The notes below the pieces were generated by a model. The model did no database searches and was not told the DNA's origin. It worked only from the letters and a program-made list of their open reading frames with translations. Of a DNA stretch of 64,000 nt, positions 5,505-11,998 are shown in pieces. The position numbers were made by a program, and so were the translations under genes. The DNA is from Escherichia coli. GTDB lineage: Bacteria; Pseudomonadota; Gammaproteobacteria; Enterobacterales; Enterobacteriaceae. Numbering within the stretch: position 1 is the first letter of the stretch; every line of letters begins with the position of its first letter. The stretch is from NCBI RefSeq assembly GCF_036507355.1, contig NZ_AP027877.1; one strand, written 5' to 3'.

Positions 5505-6260
5505 TTGAGTGCGGGACGCCTGAATAAAAAATCTCTGGGTATCGTGATGTTGTTATCGGTTGGACTGCTTTTGGCGGGCTGTTCGGGTAGCAAATCATCC
5601 GATACAGGAACGTATTCCGGCTCCGTTTACACCGTGAAACGGGGGGATACGCTATATCGTATTTCGCGCACCACGGGAACCAGCGTAAAAGAACTGGCGC
5701 GACTGAACGGCATTTCCCCCCCTTACACTATTGAAGTAGGTCAGAAACTAAAACTGGGTGGGGCGAAAAGTAGCAGTAGTACACGTAAATCAACCGCCAA
5801 ATCAACGACTAAAACCGCATCGGTTACACCGTCATCAGCGGTACCGAAATCTTCCTGGCCGCCAGTAGGGCAACGTTGTTGGTTATGGCCAACGACAGGG
5901 AAAGTTATCATGCCGTATTCGACAGCAGATGGCGGCAATAAAGGGATTGATATCTCAGCTCCACGGGGTACACCTATTTACGCCGCGGGTGCAGGAAAGG
6001 TGGTGTATGTGGGCAACCAGCTGCGTGGCTACGGTAATCTCATCATGATTAAACACAGTGAAGATTACATTACGGCTTACGCCCATAATGACACGATGCT
6101 GGTAAATAATGGGCAAAGCGTGAGGGCTGGGCAAAAAATCGCCACCATGGGGAGCACGGATGCGGCATCTGTTCGCCTGCATTTCCAGATTCGTTACCGT
6201 GCAACGGCAATTGATCCGCTACGTTACTTGCCGCCGCAGGGCAGCAAGCCAAAATGCTGA
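5505..6260 (+). CDS. ygeR: LysM/peptidase M23 lipoprotein YgeR
   Basis: Probable TTG start at 5505 preceded by GAGGA (the track ORF starts at an upstream ATG at 5481); lipobox LLAGC, LysM segment (YTVKRGDTLYRISR) and C-terminal M23 domain; located immediately upstream of glyU. Confidence 0.85.
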   Translation: MSAGRLNKKSLGIVMLLSVGLLLAGCSGSKSSDTGTYSGSVYTVKRGDTLYRISRTTGTSVKELARLNGISPPYTIEVGQKLKLGGAKSSSSTRKSTAKSTTKTASVTPSSAVPKSSWPPVGQRCWLWPTTGKVIMPYSTADGGNKGIDISAPRGTPIYAAGAGKVVYVGNQLRGYGNLIMIKHSEDYITAYAHNDTMLVNNGQSVRAGQKIATMGSTDAASVRLHFQIRYRATAIDPLRYLPPQGSKPKC

Positions 6261-6338: not shown

Positions 6339-6412
6339 GCGGGCGTAGTTCAATGGTAGAACGAGAGCTTCCCAAGCTCTATACGAGGGTTCGATTCCCT
6401 TCGCCCGCTCCA
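6339..6412 (+). tRNA. glyU: tRNA-Gly (anticodon CCC)
   Basis: 74-nt sequence GCGGGCGTAGTTCAATGGTAGAACGAGAGCTTCCCAAGCTCTATACGAGGGTTCGATTCCCTTCGCCCGCTCCA with cloverleaf and CCC anticodon. Confidence 0.97.
6390..6412 (+). repeat. attL core: 3' end of glyU (23 bp), direct repeat of 10585-10607
   Basis: TTCGATTCCCTTCGCCCGCTCCA occurs identically at 6390-6412 and 10585-10607. Confidence 0.85.
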
Positions 6413-6546
6413 TGACCTTTCTTAAAGTACTCCAACCTACTGAATCCTAAGGGATACGGCTTTAAGCCTTCCGCTAGTTTTACTCACTGTAACCAACACT
6501 GTAACTAAATTTGTTGAAATAGTGAGCAGACTTAAGATCTCAGTAC

Positions 6547-8178
6547 ATGCTCAACTCAAAAACCTATCTTTATCAGCGCAATGGCGTCTTTTATATCCGC
6601 CTCAGGATGAAGTCCACAGATCGCCTGACCGTTTCACATCCTTCCCATAGCCGTTATAAAATAGCGTCAGTATCACTACGGACTAAGGATAGACGTACAG
6701 CTATGGCTTACTCACGGCAAATCAAGGCAGCACTTAGGGCAATCCATGCAGACAGACCCAACGCCTCCTATGAGGAAATGAGGGAACACCTGAGGGACAT
6801 CGCAGAGTGGGAGTTGTCTACAGGTCGTTCAGACCTCTTCGAGCCAGATATGAGAGATCTATACCGTGACCAGTATGGGGAAGTGGGAGAGAATCTTGTC
6901 CATGCTCTGGCAAGCGAGCCACTGACTATTGACCAGCATCGCTATATTAATGAGGCTCTTAATGTACTCAAGGCCTGCATGAAGCGCATTGAAGCGGGAG
7001 ATAGCCAGCCACTTATAGATTATATAGATGGATTTGATGCTGCTGCTGGGGCTAATGGCCAAGCCTCTGCAACTCTATCTGTTAGTGCTCCCCAAAAAAC
7101 AAGCATTACTGAAGGCAAACACTGCGTAACCGTTGCTTCTCTCTTTGAGCAGTACGAGCAGGAAAACGCCCAGAACTGGAAGCCAGCAACATTACGAGAA
7201 AACAAAGCTTCTCATGCTGCGTTAATCGAAGTTTTTGATTATCTGGGCCTCAATGCTGACGCCAATGTGTTAGCTCGTGCGGATATGCTTAGGGTTCGGG
7301 ATATCCTCCAGCAATTGCCGAAGAATCGTAAGCAGCGTTTCAAAGATGTTCCGTTGGTTGACCTGCTAGGTCGTGAGGATAAAACCGATTGTCTGGATAT
7401 TGTTACCATCAATAATAAATATCTCATTAAGATGGCGGCTGTTTTCAAGTGGGCCGTGCGTAATGACCTGATTAAAAAGAATATGACAGAAGGGCTAGAG
7501 CTTAAGGTTCCCCAGCGTAAAGCCTCTGAGGCGCGTAATGCTTTCTCTACGGAGCAGGTAGGACAACTACTGGCTGCCGCCCAAGTTTACTCACAGAGAC
7601 CTTCTGGTAAGCCGTATCATTATTATGTTACCGCCTTGGCTGCTATCACTGGGGCGAGACTCAATGAAATAGCCCAACTACAGGTCAAAGACGTCAGGAC
7701 CACTGAGGCGGGAACCGTTTATATTCATATCAATGAAGACGATAGTAGTCTACCCGGTAAGAGCATCAAGAACGCTCATAGTGACCGCTGTGTGCCTCTG
7801 GTCGATGGGGCCTATGGTTTTATATTGGCTGACTTTATGAGGTTGGTTGAGACCCGTAGAGGCGCTGATGGTGATGACGCTATGGTGTTCGATGGTCTTC
7901 GCCTCATGAAGAACGGTTACGGTGAGCAGGTGAGTAAATGGTTTAATCGGACGTTGTTGCCTAAAGTCCTCGCAGACCGTAGCGGCTTAGCGTTTCACTC
8001 GTTTAGACATACAGTTGCGACCCAGTTAAAACAACATGGGGTCGAGTTGGCGTATGCACAGGCGATCATGGGGCATAGTTCAGGGTCTATTACTTACGAC
8101 CGTTATGCTAAAGAGGTTGAGGTTGATAGACTGGTCAATGTGATGGCTGATGTTTATAAGGAGGTTGTGGCCCCTTAA
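6547..8178 (+). CDS. tyrosine-type integrase (543 aa, extended N-terminal region)
   Basis: C-terminal catalytic motifs ARLNEI (Arg), HSFRHTVAT (H-x-x-R), GHSSGSITYDRYAK (Tyr); first gene after the tRNA att core. Confidence 0.85.
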   Translation: MLNSKTYLYQRNGVFYIRLRMKSTDRLTVSHPSHSRYKIASVSLRTKDRRTAMAYSRQIKAALRAIHADRPNASYEEMREHLRDIAEWELSTGRSDLFEPDMRDLYRDQYGEVGENLVHALASEPLTIDQHRYINEALNVLKACMKRIEAGDSQPLIDYIDGFDAAAGANGQASATLSVSAPQKTSITEGKHCVTVASLFEQYEQENAQNWKPATLRENKASHAALIEVFDYLGLNADANVLARADMLRVRDILQQLPKNRKQRFKDVPLVDLLGREDKTDCLDIVTINNKYLIKMAAVFKWAVRNDLIKKNMTEGLELKVPQRKASEARNAFSTEQVGQLLAAAQVYSQRPSGKPYHYYVTALAAITGARLNEIAQLQVKDVRTTEAGTVYIHINEDDSSLPGKSIKNAHSDRCVPLVDGAYGFILADFMRLVETRRGADGDDAMVFDGLRLMKNGYGEQVSKWFNRTLLPKVLADRSGLAFHSFRHTVATQLKQHGVELAYAQAIMGHSSGSITYDRYAKEVEVDRLVNVMADVYKEVVAP

Positions 8179-8179
8179 G

Positions 8180-8234
8180 GATGACCATAGGCGATGACCA
8201 TAGGCGATGACCATAGGCGATGACACTTGCTACT
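8180..8234 (+). repeat. tandem 13-bp iterons (GATGACCATAGGC x3 plus a variant GATGACACTTGCTACT)
   Basis: Three perfect head-to-tail copies starting one base after the integrase stop; the variant unit recurs at about 8391-8410. Confidence 0.8.
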
Positions 8235-8293
8235 ATTCCTATGGTCCCCTTTGTGGTCCTATGTGGTCCTGTGTGACCCTTTGTGTGGTCATG
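8235..8293 (+). repeat. cluster of TGGTCC/TGTGGTC short repeats
   Basis: ATTCCTATGGTCCCCTTTGTGGTCCTATGTGGTCCTGTGTGACCCTTTGTGTGGTCATG: about five degenerate copies of one motif. Confidence 0.7.
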
Positions 8294-8330
8294 TTTTGAC
8301 TCATAGTTTTCACTACTTGTCAAGCATATT

Positions 8331-8353
8331 TAATACGACTCACTATAGGGAGA
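8331..8353 (+). promoter_or_regulatory. bacteriophage T7 RNA polymerase promoter (exact 23-bp class III consensus)
   Basis: TAATACGACTCACTATAGGGAGA read directly, predicted +1 G at 8348; followed by a TCTCTCTCTGTCTCTCTC tract. Confidence 0.85.
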
Positions 8354-8584
8354 AGGGACACAAAAAGTTTTCTCTCTCTGTCTCTCTCTATGATGACACT
8401 TGCTACTACTTCAGGTAGCTTTAACTCTAACCGTAACTTATCGCATCCTTTCAGGGGCGGGATGACCAATTACAGACACCAAGCGTTCTACTTAAAATGA
8501 ATGCTTCCTGTGTGCTCTGGGTCAGTCGATAAGTGAATAGCCTTAGACATCATATTAATTATGGTCTCTAACCCCTACAGGGGC

Positions 8585-8729
8585 TTAACTTTAAGTATTA
8601 ACTTATAGTCTACTTAAAGACACAATTAAAGATTAACTTAAAGTATTAAATTATAGATTAATTAAAGACCAATTAAAGAGTAACTTTAAGTATTAACTTA
8701 TAGTCTACTTAAAGACACAATTAAAGATT
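8585..8729 (+). repeat. AT-rich iteron array with two ~48-bp direct repeats (TTAAAGA/TTAAAGAC units)
   Basis: AACTTTAAGTATTAACTTATAGTCTACTTAAAGACACAATTAAAGATT at about 8587-8634 and 8682-8729; preceded by CCCCTACAGGGG at about 8570. Confidence 0.8.
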
Positions 8730-8920
8730 GACTCTAAGGGAATACCTTAAGAGGTGATGATATTCATAATAATCAATCACCAAACCTATAGGTCTCCTCA
8801 AGGCATTACCCAGAAGCTAACTGTATGGCCCTGTATGGTCCTGTACGCCATTCTTTAGGATGCCATGTAGTTTCGTATGGCCTGATGCCTAGCGTGGCTC
8901 AGAGACCCTCCCAGTAGTAA

Positions 8921-8945
8921 ATCAATACGACTTACTAATAGGAGA
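8921..8945 (+). promoter_or_regulatory. degenerate T7-like promoter (putative)
   Basis: CAATACGACTTACTAATAGGAGACA: 18 of 23 positions match the T7 consensus, same orientation, about 230 bp upstream of the 9158 ORF. Confidence 0.45.
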
Positions 8946-9157
8946 CACACTCCGAACCACTCACCACGTGTCTCTCAAAGTTCCACCTCTCGCGCTTCAC
9001 CATACAGTAGCTCCGCACAGCTACGACACAATCATTCATTCAATCTCAAAGTCATTCTGTTTGCATCCTGTTGTCCTGCTGGTCTCCCTTCGCTTGGGGA
9101 CTTTGAGTGGGCCAGTAGGGGGCGGTTTAGTGTGCATATTTAAAAGGTAACCAAGCA

Positions 9158-9721
9158 ATGAACAATAAACATAAACATGCAGGTCATATTATCACTATTG
9201 AAGGCCACAGCTTTAAGTCTAATGAGTCTGGCATGTGGAATCTTACAGAAATATGGAAAATCCTCGGATTACCTAACAATAAGCTACCCTCTCAGTGGCG
9301 CGGCAAGGTAACAAAGAGGCTCACCGACATGCAAAAAATGCACGTCGAGAAGATTGGTATTGAAAGCATAACCTACGCAGACAAACAGGCTACCCTCAAG
9401 TATGCAGGATGGGTCTCTGAAGATTTCGAGGACATGGTCTATGCAGCCTTTGAGGCTATCCTTGAGATGCCTGAAGTTGCCACGGTCGTTGCTAATAAGA
9501 TGGTCGAACTTGGCTATCACGCTGAAGCTGAGCTATTGGAACGTCATAAGGACGACTATAGAGAAGCTATGCAGACCCTTAAAAAGATTGGTAAACGTGT
9601 TGACGGCAGGAAGCCTGAGCGCATCTACAAGGCCGTACTTAACGGTAATCTGACGAAATTTCAAGGGTTATCCATGATTTCTCGCAGCAGTGTCTGGTAC
9701 GCCCGAACAGTGAATCTATGA
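9158..9721 (+). CDS. hypothetical protein, possible KilA-N-like N-terminal domain
   Basis: 187-aa ORF with AAGGTAA upstream; N-terminal IITIEGHSFKSNESGMWNLTEIWKILG...AGWVSEDFEDMVYAAF is reminiscent of KilA-N/APSES-type domains (tentative, from recall). Confidence 0.5.
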   Translation: MNNKHKHAGHIITIEGHSFKSNESGMWNLTEIWKILGLPNNKLPSQWRGKVTKRLTDMQKMHVEKIGIESITYADKQATLKYAGWVSEDFEDMVYAAFEAILEMPEVATVVANKMVELGYHAEAELLERHKDDYREAMQTLKKIGKRVDGRKPERIYKAVLNGNLTKFQGLSMISRSSVWYARTVNL

Positions 9722-9844
9722 TGGCTATCGATCACGATAGATGCCAGCGATCAATTTCAGGTTACCGATCGAAACAAACGATCAGCACGATGGTTGCAAT
9801 CGGATATCATATTGACACTTGTCTGACATCCTGAAGGTATCAAT

Positions 9845-10318
9845 ATGTTTGGGCTTTTTAAGAAAAAGGCAAAAGCGGAAAGGTGTTATGATGTAACACG
9901 CATTCAATACGAGCTGGTTGTAATGTCATCTAAGCTGATAAAAAAACAGACCGATATGTTCAAAGTAATAAAAGGGGAGCGAGAGGAGGCTTTAGGAGAC
10001 CCTTTATTATCAGCAGGGTATATAACGCCATGGGTCATTGGATATTGCACTGGTCTCCTGGATGCAGTGACTCAGACGGAGGCTAACAGGATGGCATTTA
10101 CATCAGAAATGCTTGGGCTTCTTTTTGCTGCAGTTTTCGGTGATGATAAGTCTCTTGAGGCCATGGGAACTTATATAGCCTGTAACGAAGCCTCCTCACC
10201 AGACCATGGATTTCATGTTACGTATGAGCTTTATATGTCTGGTCTAGCGAAAGCGTTTAATGAGGTATGTGAGGATAAACCTGCGATAGGACTTCTGAAC
10301 TATTTAATGCAGGATTGA
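9845..10318 (+). CDS. hypothetical protein (157 aa)
   Basis: ORF with no recognisable motifs; TTGACA at about 9810 upstream; last ORF before attR. Confidence 0.45.
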   Translation: MFGLFKKKAKAERCYDVTRIQYELVVMSSKLIKKQTDMFKVIKGEREEALGDPLLSAGYITPWVIGYCTGLLDAVTQTEANRMAFTSEMLGLLFAAVFGDDKSLEAMGTYIACNEASSPDHGFHVTYELYMSGLAKAFNEVCEDKPAIGLLNYLMQD

Positions 10319-10584
10319 AAATTTCCCACAAAAATCTCAGTGCCTATCTAACAGTAATAACCCTGCAACATTCCCCCGTATACCTCCAGAAGTTATCCAG
10401 AAGCCGAAGTAGGTATCCTGTCATGTATTTGAATCATCAAAGTTGTTCGTTCTATTCCTCTTTAGGGAATATTACAGCCCTACAGCCTTGACCAGAGATC
10501 ACTTGATGTGTAACCATAACTGTAACCAAAAGGATTCATCATCCTTTAAGAAACAATTGGTTAGTGAGTGATTGTCTTCGATAC

Positions 10585-10607
10585 TTCGATTCCCTTCGCC
10601 CGCTCCA
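10585..10607 (+). repeat. attR of the 4.2-kb element (also proximal att of the next islet)
   Basis: 23-bp copy of the glyU 3' end; flanking sequence diverges from the tRNA. Confidence 0.85.
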
Positions 10608-10771
10608 AACTCAAGTCTCCTGAAGTCTACCAAACTCAATTTTTCCTTGATAAATCAGCAGTTATAGCTTTCTATTAGTCTATTGAACTCAATTGTACTC
10701 CCCCAGGGTCAAGCTCAATGTGGGGGTATGGATGGGGGTATAATTGTACCCCCTGCTGAGAGGTACCCCCA

Positions 10772-11998
10772 ATGAAGCTGACTGCTCGTCAGGTTGAAAC
10801 TGCGAAACCCAAAGAGAAGCCCTACAAACTGGCCGATGGTGGTGGGCTTTACCTGCTGGTTAATCCCAACGGTAAAAGATACTGGCGTCTCAAATACCGT
10901 TCGTTAGGTAAAGAGAAGCTGCTCGCTATTGGCGTTTATCCCGATGTTTCTTTAGCTGAGGCCCGAAGTAAGCGTGAGGATGCTAAAAGAACATTAGCGG
11001 CTGGCAACGATCCCTCTCTTGAACGAAAAATTGAGAAACTTAGTCGTCAACAAGACGCTGAAAACTCGTTTGAGGCTATCACACGGGAGTGGTATCAGCG
11101 TCGCTATGACCGCTGGTCTGTCTCCTACCGCGAAGAAATGCTGAGAACCTTTGAGAAAGATGTATTTCCTTATATCGGTCACAGGCCAATCAAAGATATC
11201 AAGCCGATGGAGTTGCTTGCAGTTCTTTCAAAGATAGAAGCACGAGGGGCAACAGAGAAAGTCCGCAAGGTTCGTCAGCGTTGTGGAGAGGTCTGGAAGT
11301 ATGCCGTTGTGACTGGGAGGGCCGAGTACAATCCAGCACCTGATCTAGCCAGCGCCGTGAGTCCTCATGAGAAAGAGCACTATGCTTTTTTAACCCAGGA
11401 TGAATTGCCTGAGTTTCTTCGGACTCTGAACGCCTATGCCGGTAGTGTGCTTGTTAAGATTGCGATGCAATTGCTCATTTTAACAGGAGTAAGGCCAGGG
11501 GAGTTGAGGCAAGCGGAGTGGCAGGAGTTTGATTTTGAGAAAAAGGTTTGGAATGTACCAGCGGAACGTATGAAAATGCGCCGCCCTCATCTTGTTCCAT
11601 TATCAAGCCAGGCAATTGACCTGCTTAATCAACTTAAACCCATAACGGGAGCAGGAGCGTTATTATTCCCAGGACGTAATAATCCTAAGAAACCGATGAG
11701 CGATATGGCATTGACTGTGTTGGTCAGGCGTATCGGCTATGCCGGGCGCGTTACAGGGCATGGATTCCGCCACACGATGAGTACCATTTTGCATGAGCAG
11801 GGATTCAACTCGGCCTGGATTGAGTTACAGCTGGCTCACGTCGATAAGAACTCAATTCGTGGGACGTATAACCATGCTCAATATTTGGAAGGTCGGCGGG
11901 AGATGATGCAGTGGTATGGAGATTTCATCGGTCAAGCAGGCAAATCCGGATCATCGCTAGCTTATGCAGCTATTAGCTTGACTGCTGAATTAGAGTGA
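10772..11998 (+). CDS. P4-type tyrosine integrase
   Basis: 408-aa ORF; N-terminus MKLTARQVETAKPKEKPYKLADGGGLYLLVNPNGKRYWRLKY typical of P4-family integrases; HGFRHT and Y-containing C-terminal box; sits 165 bp after the tRNA-derived repeat. Confidence 0.9.
   Translation: MKLTARQVETAKPKEKPYKLADGGGLYLLVNPNGKRYWRLKYRSLGKEKLLAIGVYPDVSLAEARSKREDAKRTLAAGNDPSLERKIEKLSRQQDAENSFEAITREWYQRRYDRWSVSYREEMLRTFEKDVFPYIGHRPIKDIKPMELLAVLSKIEARGATEKVRKVRQRCGEVWKYAVVTGRAEYNPAPDLASAVSPHEKEHYAFLTQDELPEFLRTLNAYAGSVLVKIAMQLLILTGVRPGELRQAEWQEFDFEKKVWNVPAERMKMRRPHLVPLSSQAIDLLNQLKPITGAGALLFPGRNNPKKPMSDMALTVLVRRIGYAGRVTGHGFRHTMSTILHEQGFNSAWIELQLAHVDKNSIRGTYNHAQYLEGRREMMQWYGDFIGQAGKSGSSLAYAAISLTAELE

Follow-up and report, generated by a model that had tools for sequence, protein, structure and literature searches.

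RAZR debris and T7-type promoters in a tRNA-Gly island of Escherichia coli: a putative satellite-like or defence element triggered by T7-group phages

The locus and its island

The window analysed here, a 64,000-nt stretch of Escherichia coli DNA (contig NZ_AP027877.1 of assembly GCF_036507355.1), has the E. coli-type chromosomal context recJ-prfB-lysS-idi-xdhA-actS-glyU and carries at a tRNA-Gly gene a small island whose limits (6390–10607; 4.2 kb) are set by an exact 23-nt repeat. Within these limits, ~980 bp of non-coding DNA separate an integrase gene from a KilA-N-like gene, which precedes a gene for a protein of 157 amino acids (aa). An earlier note on this DNA had singled out the repeats that fill 8180–8293, just past the integrase gene, and had likened them to the left end of phage T7. 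Our preferred reading, which we think probable rather than firm, is that this repeat block is debris of the defence gene RAZR and that the island around it would be a satellite-like or defence element triggered by T7-group phages. The features that define the island are as follows.

6339–6412, + strand: tRNA-Gly(CCC) (ARAGORN; Rfam tRNA)
6390–6412, + strand: left attachment-site (att) core, the final 23 nt of the tRNA, TTCGATTCCCTTCGCCCGCTCCA
6547–8178, + strand: tyrosine integrase, 543 aa (PHROG integrase, 2.6e-42)
9158–9721, + strand: KilA-N-like DNA-binding protein, 187 aa (PHROG_129, 7.8e-10; Pfam KilA-N, 0.0027; RefSeq name of a homologue)
9845–10318, + strand: all-helical 157-aa protein, restricted to Enterobacterales
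10585–10607, + strand: right att core, an exact repeat of the tRNA 3′ end that closes the 4.2-kb island

The integrase belongs to a family whose members in Escherichia, Klebsiella, Serratia, Yersinia, Citrobacter, Raoultella and Plesiomonas are at least 80% identical; this family was present in 384 of 5,426 complete E. coli genomes, and the non-coding part of the island was found in 92 of the same 5,426. Relatives (here given locus numbers, L001 and so on) include 16 loci from other Enterobacterales and one plasmid copy; the family was found in 16 species of this order. E. coli, Klebsiella and Proteus also have islands of 6.2–6.5 kb with the identical att repeat, and a compact, att-bounded unit of 4.2–6.5 kb recurs in many genera.

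Origin of the repeat block

Two tandem arrays and a boundary repeat make up the block, and a pyrimidine tract lies some way downstream.

8180–8224, + strand: 13-mer array, 3.5 perfect copies of GATGACCATAGGC (Tandem Repeats Finder, 100% matches; a separate repeat search agrees)
8219–8235, + strand: GATGACACTTGCTACTA, left boundary repeat of a promoter cassette, with an exact second copy beyond the promoter at 8392–8408
8237–8293, + strand: TGGTCC-type 10-mer array, four or five units, period 10
8371–8389, + strand: TC tract TCTCTCTCTGTCTCTCTCT, in the initially transcribed region past the promoter

As a description, the earlier note was accurate: its three perfect tandem 13-mers and its related unit are the first two features above, its “about five” TGGTCC-type repeats are the four or five units that reach 8293, the repeats begin two bases past the end of the integrase open reading frame (8178), and the TC tract does follow the promoter (8331–8353). 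There are TGGTC cores at 8242, 8254, 8264 and 8286 and a variant, TGACC, near 8272, and TGGTC occurs seven times within 8183–8290 when both strands are counted. The 13-mer core has its inverted complement in the first 10-mer unit, CCTATGGTC, and GACCATAGG in the left array and CCTATGGTC in this first right-hand unit form inverted repeats.

What lies at this position in relatives is a gene. Most carry, directly 3′ of the integrase, a 210-aa gene that PADLOC assigns to PD-T7-4 (8.3e-99), i.e., RAZR, a zinc-finger/HEPN RNase that responds to phage portal assembly by aborting infection with T7 and T3 (PMC13017515); RAZR/PD-T7-4 loci adjoining integrases have already been published (Vassallo et al., 2022, PMC9519451; PMC13017515, 2026). 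RAZR-positive relatives have coding sequence at the block position and no repeat block, and their phage promoter begins a few bases past the RAZR stop codon. In the window, tblastn detected no intact RAZR, and short debris alone stands in its place. An intermediate state is preserved in L030 and L031, which retain a 48-nt RAZR remnant (44/48 identical) that ends in GAGGATGACC, is joined to CATAGTCGATGACC and equals RAZR minus 37 bp. The window 13-mer GATGACCATAGGC aligns onto this 37-bp deletion junction in the RAZR 3′ coding region, and GATGACACTTGCTAC, which follows the 13-mers, corresponds to GATGACCGTATTACTAGACC of RAZR.

Copy number of the repeats also differs among close relatives. In elements that are ~99% identical, the 13-mer is present twice (L029, L032) or three times (the window, L001); the 10-mer array is one unit longer in L001 than in the window, and the TC tract of L029 is longer by one 10-nt unit. 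As to the promoter cassette flanked by GATGACACTTGCTACTA, the window, L008 and L031 have a single copy, L030 has two, and L007 and L009 have three. L008 also has long arrays of TCTCTATAGGTC-like units.

Because the repeat unit maps to the RAZR deletion junction, and because its copy number varies in near-identical strains, we regard the block as gene debris. Specifically, a 37-bp deletion inside RAZR would have created GATGACC-CATAG(G/T)C-GATGACC, replication slippage would then have amplified the 13-mer to two or three copies, and the neighbouring TGGTCC 10-mers as well, and unequal recombination would have doubled or tripled the promoter cassette, edged by GATGACACTTGCTACTA, in other strains. 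We conclude that the block is best explained as the remains of the 3′ part of RAZR plus slippage expansions, at the edge of an amplifiable promoter cassette, and neither as an iteron origin or packaging (pac) site nor as T7 left-end sequence copied into the island. In itself, such a block is nothing unusual.

Phage promoters

Beyond the block lies an exact phage promoter, and a decayed one lies further downstream.

8331–8353, + strand: T7 class III promoter, exact 23/23 consensus TAATACGACTCACTATAGGGAGA, predicted start G8348
8923–8945, + strand: second T7-like promoter, degenerate, CAATACGACTTACTAATAGGAGA (5 mismatches or 1 indel), at a place where relatives have an intact phage promoter

The first is identical in sequence to phi6.5, phi9, phi10, phi13, phi17 and phiOR, and, with up to 3 mismatches allowed, nothing else in the window matches the T7 consensus (nor did anything in 100 shuffles). 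At the equivalent place, relatives hold one to four phage-type promoters, all on the + strand, whose specificity regions differ, and single elements may hold promoters of two or three specificities.

L005 (E. coli) and L014 (K. pneumoniae ATCC 13883): exact T7, exact K11, K11 variant and AATTAGGTAGCACTATAGGGAGA
L038 and L039 (K. pneumoniae): K11-type and AATTAGGTAGCACTATAGGGAGA
L006 (E. coli): K1F (Kayfunavirus) type, matching sites in K1F-group phages
L016 (Citrobacter): K1F-like, judged by eye
L042 (Enterobacter plasmid): K1F type, the same as a K1F promoter
L022 (Kluyvera) and L024 (Proteus): T3-like AATTAACCCACACTATAGGGAGA, the same as sites in ICP3/N4-group vibriophages

Host-type signals are scarce across the same DNA. 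Sigma-70-like sites are depleted in the non-coding part of the island (1 observed vs 6.1 expected in a scan of 8100–10700), and no intrinsic terminator-like sites were found in 8100–10700; together, these observations fit a region that is silent without a phage polymerase.

The mixed T7/K11/third-type promoter array is found in E. coli L005 (8386–8963) and in K. pneumoniae L014 (7036–7612), in islands ~92% identical, and this shared array suggests transfer between genera and a multi-helper range. Pentamers from the promoter core and start region (GAGAC, AGACC, CTATA, ATAGG, CCCTA) are strongly over-represented in window positions 8179–9157 and in the non-coding DNA of L005, L006, L016 and L024.

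Structured RNAs downstream of the promoters

Two conserved structures lie within the predicted transcript.

8429–8541, + strand: structured leader RNA with helices P1, P2, P3a and P3 (covariation; no Rfam family)
9045–9157, + strand: conserved, apparently structured 5′ leader of the first gene (sequence comparison; plasmid copy)

The leader RNA motif, 95–114 nt long, follows phage promoters in 13 distinct sequences from nine genera, with the conserved motifs AACCGUA, UUUCAGGGGCG, ACAGAC and GUGAAUAGC single-stranded. As nhmmer with four leader seeds matched no distant loci, these relatives were found by motif regular expression and placed in a manual structural alignment. In it, 97.7% of cells in the four helices are paired, compared with 66.5 ± 2.0% when partners are permuted and 32–45% when they are slid, and 20 of the 26 base pairs show double-sided (compensatory) changes. 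RNAalifold gives the same fold as the hand alignment. Unconstrained single-sequence minimum-free-energy folds recover P1 and P3 almost everywhere; among the six most divergent leaders, all helices were recovered in four, at most one pair was missing in a fifth, and P3 alone was recovered in L017. The G-U pairs seen on the + strand speak for an RNA rather than for single-stranded DNA. In Rfam, searched in E-value mode, the tRNA was the sole match and the leader RNA went unmatched.

The second structure is retained before a KilA-N, Rha or Ant-like gene alike, overlaps the ribosome-binding site, and has helices with compensatory changes, e.g., TTTGCATCCTG/CAGGATGCAAA vs TATGTCTCCTG/CAGGAGACATA.

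The heptamer CAGGGGC occurs twice per element, in the P2 loop of the leader RNA (window 8452–8462) and ~110 nt downstream (8572–8583), and has the counterpart ACAGGCGGA in K1F-type elements. A protein might bind it, or it might form a tertiary contact.

An AT-rich region resembling T7 origins

Between the leader RNA and the second promoter lies an AT-rich region flanked by hairpins.

8572–8583, + strand: small G+C hairpin CCCCTACAGGGG, directly 5′ of the AT-rich region
8585–8738, + strand: AT-rich 48-bp repeats, 3.2 copies, TTAAAG-rich (Tandem Repeats Finder)
8753–8781, + strand: hairpin GGTGATGATATTCATAATAATCAATCACC, kept in relatives

Positions 8637–8699 align with T7 5952–6017, the AT-rich part of the primary origin just past phi1.1B (score 50), and 8618–8717 align with T7 408–498, just past phiOL (score 49). 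These are the two top tiles of the whole T7 genome (z 8.4–10.2; reached by 0 of 200 shuffles), and T7 tiles of comparable A+T content score far lower against the same region. The AT-rich regions of L005 and L038 pick out the same top T7 tiles, and the K11 tiles that score best immediately follow phi1.05 and phiOL. The hairpin GGTGATGATATTCATAATAATCAATCACC is like the T7 hairpin GGTGATTATATTGTATTAGTATCACC, which lies 3′ of phiOR and before gene 19.5, although this likeness is marginal (z 2.6 vs the T7 right end). A T7-type origin architecture is thus present: downstream of the phage promoter comes AT-rich sequence akin to that of T7 origins. A T7 promoter with such an AT-rich region reportedly suffices as a plasmid origin, as is said to follow from the work of Fuller and Richardson and of Rabkin and Richardson.

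Island genes and the gene content of relatives

The KilA-N-like gene is the first gene 3′ of the phage promoter, and throughout the family a KilA-N, Rha, Bro or Ant-like gene always takes this first place. For the 157-aa protein there was no family match, and a Foldseek search of its AlphaFold 2 model (predicted local distance difference test, pLDDT, 70) against PDB returned noise.

Larger relatives (6.2–6.5 kb) end with DUF6971 and a protein of 330–390 aa, the latter found in L005 (10830–11957), L014, L016, L017, L019, L021, L024, L025, L026, L035 and L038. Pfam and PHROG searches with this protein were negative, and a sequence-family search gave no PDB match. The AlphaFold model of a ~375-aa member has a pLDDT of 58 overall and of 70–89 over the C-terminal 200 residues, and yielded 110 PDB and 125 BFVD matches (E ≤ 1e-3, probability 1.00) that are mainly phage major capsid proteins and encapsulins (all but two among the top matches listed). 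We therefore assign the protein, with modest confidence, a capsid-like HK97 fold; hhalign found no recognisable relationship to T7 gp10. The window island is, to judge from its gene content, a reduced member of the family, without RAZR and without the capsid-like gene.

The same module, without an integrase, occurs on L042, the 58.7-kb Enterobacter hormaechei plasmid pEh5_2 (NZ_CP126871; 1181–3101), where a gene for a 202-aa protein stands upstream of a pair of phage promoters; the leader RNA, the structured 5′ leader and an Ant-like gene complete it. The 202-aa protein has an R-x4-H motif and is HEPN-like by eye, with no PADLOC match; it is also encoded 3′ of the integrase in Kluyvera L022.

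Beyond the right att site a second island follows in tandem, with a P4-type integrase (10772–11998). Low-G+C stretches extend from past its start to ~30000 (32–36% at 12–16 kb and 24–30 kb) and may include remnants of the ETT2 type III secretion system; ygeQ and type III secretion pseudogenes adjoin the island in L001 and L004.

Proposed function and alternative explanations

The architecture described above is read directly from the sequence; what the island does, we infer from it. In uninfected cells, the island would be nearly silent. An infecting T7-like phage makes its own RNA polymerase, so the island promoter would fire while host transcription is being shut off, and the resulting transcript would carry the structured RNA and drive the KilA-N gene. 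That transcript may also, as at T7 origins, prime the phage DNA polymerase in the AT-rich region, in which case the phage replisome would make further copies of the island; full-size members might next hinder capsid assembly or else package themselves. These steps differ in how far they can be trusted. A phage-polymerase trigger is likely, the chances that the AT-rich module acts as an origin are about even, and we would give true satellite behaviour of the family about one chance in three. Several Autographiviridae promoter specificities, together with the usual presence of RAZR and, in the 6.2–6.5-kb members, a capsid-like protein, make a satellite-like or interference element the most likely identity of the family.

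A more far-reaching proposal is that the tRNA-Gly islands are the first satellites of virulent T7-group phages (Autographiviridae), with promoters for the helper RNA polymerase as their switch, helper polymerases that fire a T7-type origin without an initiator of the island's own, a full form that adds a divergent HK97 capsid protein and portal-sensing RAZR, and a leader RNA that is a new class needed for the cycle. This we offer as a tentative idea that may well prove wrong. Were it true, several specificities per element would widen the helper range.

A number of observations weigh against the reading that we prefer. Direct phage homology of the non-coding region, searched by blastn in distant mode, amounts to the promoters and a weak AT-rich match, and K1F-type relatives are without the origin-like similarity. 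The leader RNA alignment is a manual one guided by the structure itself. The capsid-like model is modest (overall pLDDT of 58; template-modelling scores of 0.25–0.38), and the gene that it represents is absent from the window island. The attP junction, sought as an exact 34-nt pattern, was not found in Joint Genome Institute (JGI) metagenomes or IMG/VR, and three island-sized metagenome contigs are integrated copies rather than circles. Finally, an enrichment of T7 primase pentamers, considered below, means that the block could still have a secondary role.

The main rival of the satellite interpretation is a purely defensive role, in which phage RNA polymerase induces a toxic or interfering KilA-N-like protein or RNA and the infection is aborted, with no replication or carriage by the phage. 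Linkage to the abortive-infection gene RAZR speaks for it, as do the constancy of the first gene as a KilA-N, Rha, Bro or Ant-like one and the missing attP junctions, and several promoter specificities would broaden sensing just as well as helper range. Such a role nevertheless leaves unexplained the T7-origin-like AT-rich module, the HK97-fold gene of the larger relatives and a clean, att-bounded mobility across genera, and we consider it possible, if rather unlikely, as a full account of the island.

The repeats themselves might instead be functional, as binding sites for the KilA-N protein or the integrase, or as a loading zone of T7 primase recognition sites that aids leftward synthesis from the neighbouring promoter-type origin. 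Their 10- and 13-bp periods, the inverted arrangement of units and the occurrence of TGGTC on both strands would suit such roles, and T7 primase pentamers are indeed dense in 8179–9157 (24.5 per kb vs 3.65 per kb in the rest of the window, 6.7-fold; still 23.3 per kb once tandem copies are collapsed). This excess is, however, not the top signal and belongs to a wider excess of promoter-core fragments (GAGAC, AGACC, CTATA, ATAGG), RAZR-positive relatives do without the block altogether, and the origin of the 13-mer at a deletion junction within a gene, like a copy number that varies freely in near-identical strains, also speaks against such roles. We hold a functional role to be improbable.

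Far less probable still is that the block copies or mimics the G+C-rich terminal repeat of T7, or its concatemer junction, and acts as a packaging site. The motifs GATGACC and TCTCTCTGT resemble T7 ends by eye, perhaps because promoter-core pentamers abound here, and the T7 promoter is reportedly part of the pacB region (work attributed to Chung and Hinkle, 1990, and to Hashimoto and Fujisawa, 1992). Yet Smith-Waterman alignments of 8180–8293 with the T7 left end, right end and concatemer junction score no better than dinucleotide shuffles (z 0.0–0.2), the TC tract is likewise not significant (z 1.6 for 8354–8430), and the class II pause signal ATCTGTT was not found 3′ of 8353 in the island, nor in six relatives. 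A blastn search with 8170–8330 (E ≤ 10) gave two chance matches in non-T7-like phages among 50,697 phage records and nothing among 72,556 plasmid records. The broader idea of T7-like mimicry at this locus is right, though for the neighbouring exact promoter and the AT-rich 8618–8717 and not for the block, which is decayed RAZR with recent expansions. The earlier note had also named a plasmid or insertion-sequence (IS) repeat family as the source to expect should similarity to T7 ends be lacking; that similarity is lacking, and the repeats match no such family.

Descent from a temperate T7-like prophage, of which the island would be the decayed left end, as an integrase followed by phage promoters and early-region-like AT-rich sequence might suggest (integrase-bearing T7-like phages exist, e.g., cyanophage P-SSP7 and Pseudomonas LUZ100), is very unlikely given that phage RNA polymerase, DNA polymerase and tail genes are missing, that the compact att-bounded unit recurs across genera, that single elements combine two or three promoter specificities, and that homology to phage genomes is limited to promoters.

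With respect to our preferred reading—RAZR debris beside a putative phage-triggered element—several implications follow. Natural E. coli chromosomes have generally been treated as without T7 promoters, which is the basis of T7 expression systems; this island family brings T7-, K11-, K1F- and T3-like consensus promoters into the chromosomes of E. coli and many Enterobacterales, and strains that bear an island could behave unexpectedly in T7-based expression or in phage therapy. The family suggests a general strategy in which a mobile element stays silent until a particular virulent phage arrives, and a way of being expressed past host transcription shut-off and possibly of being copied by the phage replisome. 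It gives a genomic context for RAZR defence, points to a new structured RNA and provides candidates for the first satellites of T7-like phages.

Comparison with known systems

In the open-access papers and preprints searched, no account turned up of T7-promoter islands, of satellites for these phage genera, of the multi-specific promoter arrays, of the leader RNA, of the T7-origin-like module or of the capsid-fold gene. Among the closest known systems are the RAZR/PD-T7-4 integrase loci, which share the integrase family and the locus, and whose members among our relatives hold RAZR exactly at the block position. The window island belongs with them, having the family integrase at tRNA-Gly and the att repeats, and differs in that its RAZR is reduced to debris. 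Term searches of those reports (PMC9519451 and PMC13017515) gave no mention of phage promoters, the leader RNA, the origin-like region or the downstream genes.

Like the phage satellites (P4, PICI/SaPI, cfPICI, PLE, PICMI), the islands are small, att-bounded, integrative and tied to one phage group, with a defence gene (RAZR in relatives) and, in larger relatives, a capsid-fold protein; an att-bounded integrase element that has spread between hosts is what one would expect of a satellite. In the window, no capsid, packaging or size-redirection gene was found. The family also differs from satellites in that it encodes neither initiator nor primase and lacks terminase and scaffold-redirecting genes, in a predicted switch that is a promoter for the helper RNA polymerase instead of an antirepressor or activator, and in its presumed helpers, which are virulent T7-group podophages.

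Plasmid iteron origins (pSC101, R6K, P1) likewise set short direct repeats beside an AT-rich region. Their units are 17–22 bp long at ~22-bp phasing, whereas those of the block are 13 and 10 bp, unstable in copy number, derived from coding sequence and without a plasmid match; no rep-like gene was found beside the block.

The T7 origins (primary, phi1.1A/phi1.1B with a 61-bp AT-rich region; secondary, phiOL and phiOR) have the same order of T7-type promoter or promoters and then AT-rich region. Here that order is found in a bacterial island, with ~230 nt, including a structured RNA, between promoter and AT-rich region. Finally, engineered phage-triggered suicide cassettes, in which a lethal gene is put under a phage-specific promoter (e.g., the phi31 promoter system of Lactococcus), also place genes behind a promoter that the infecting phage alone activates; the island differs from them in being natural, mobile and multi-specific, and in being joined to a structured RNA and an origin-like module.

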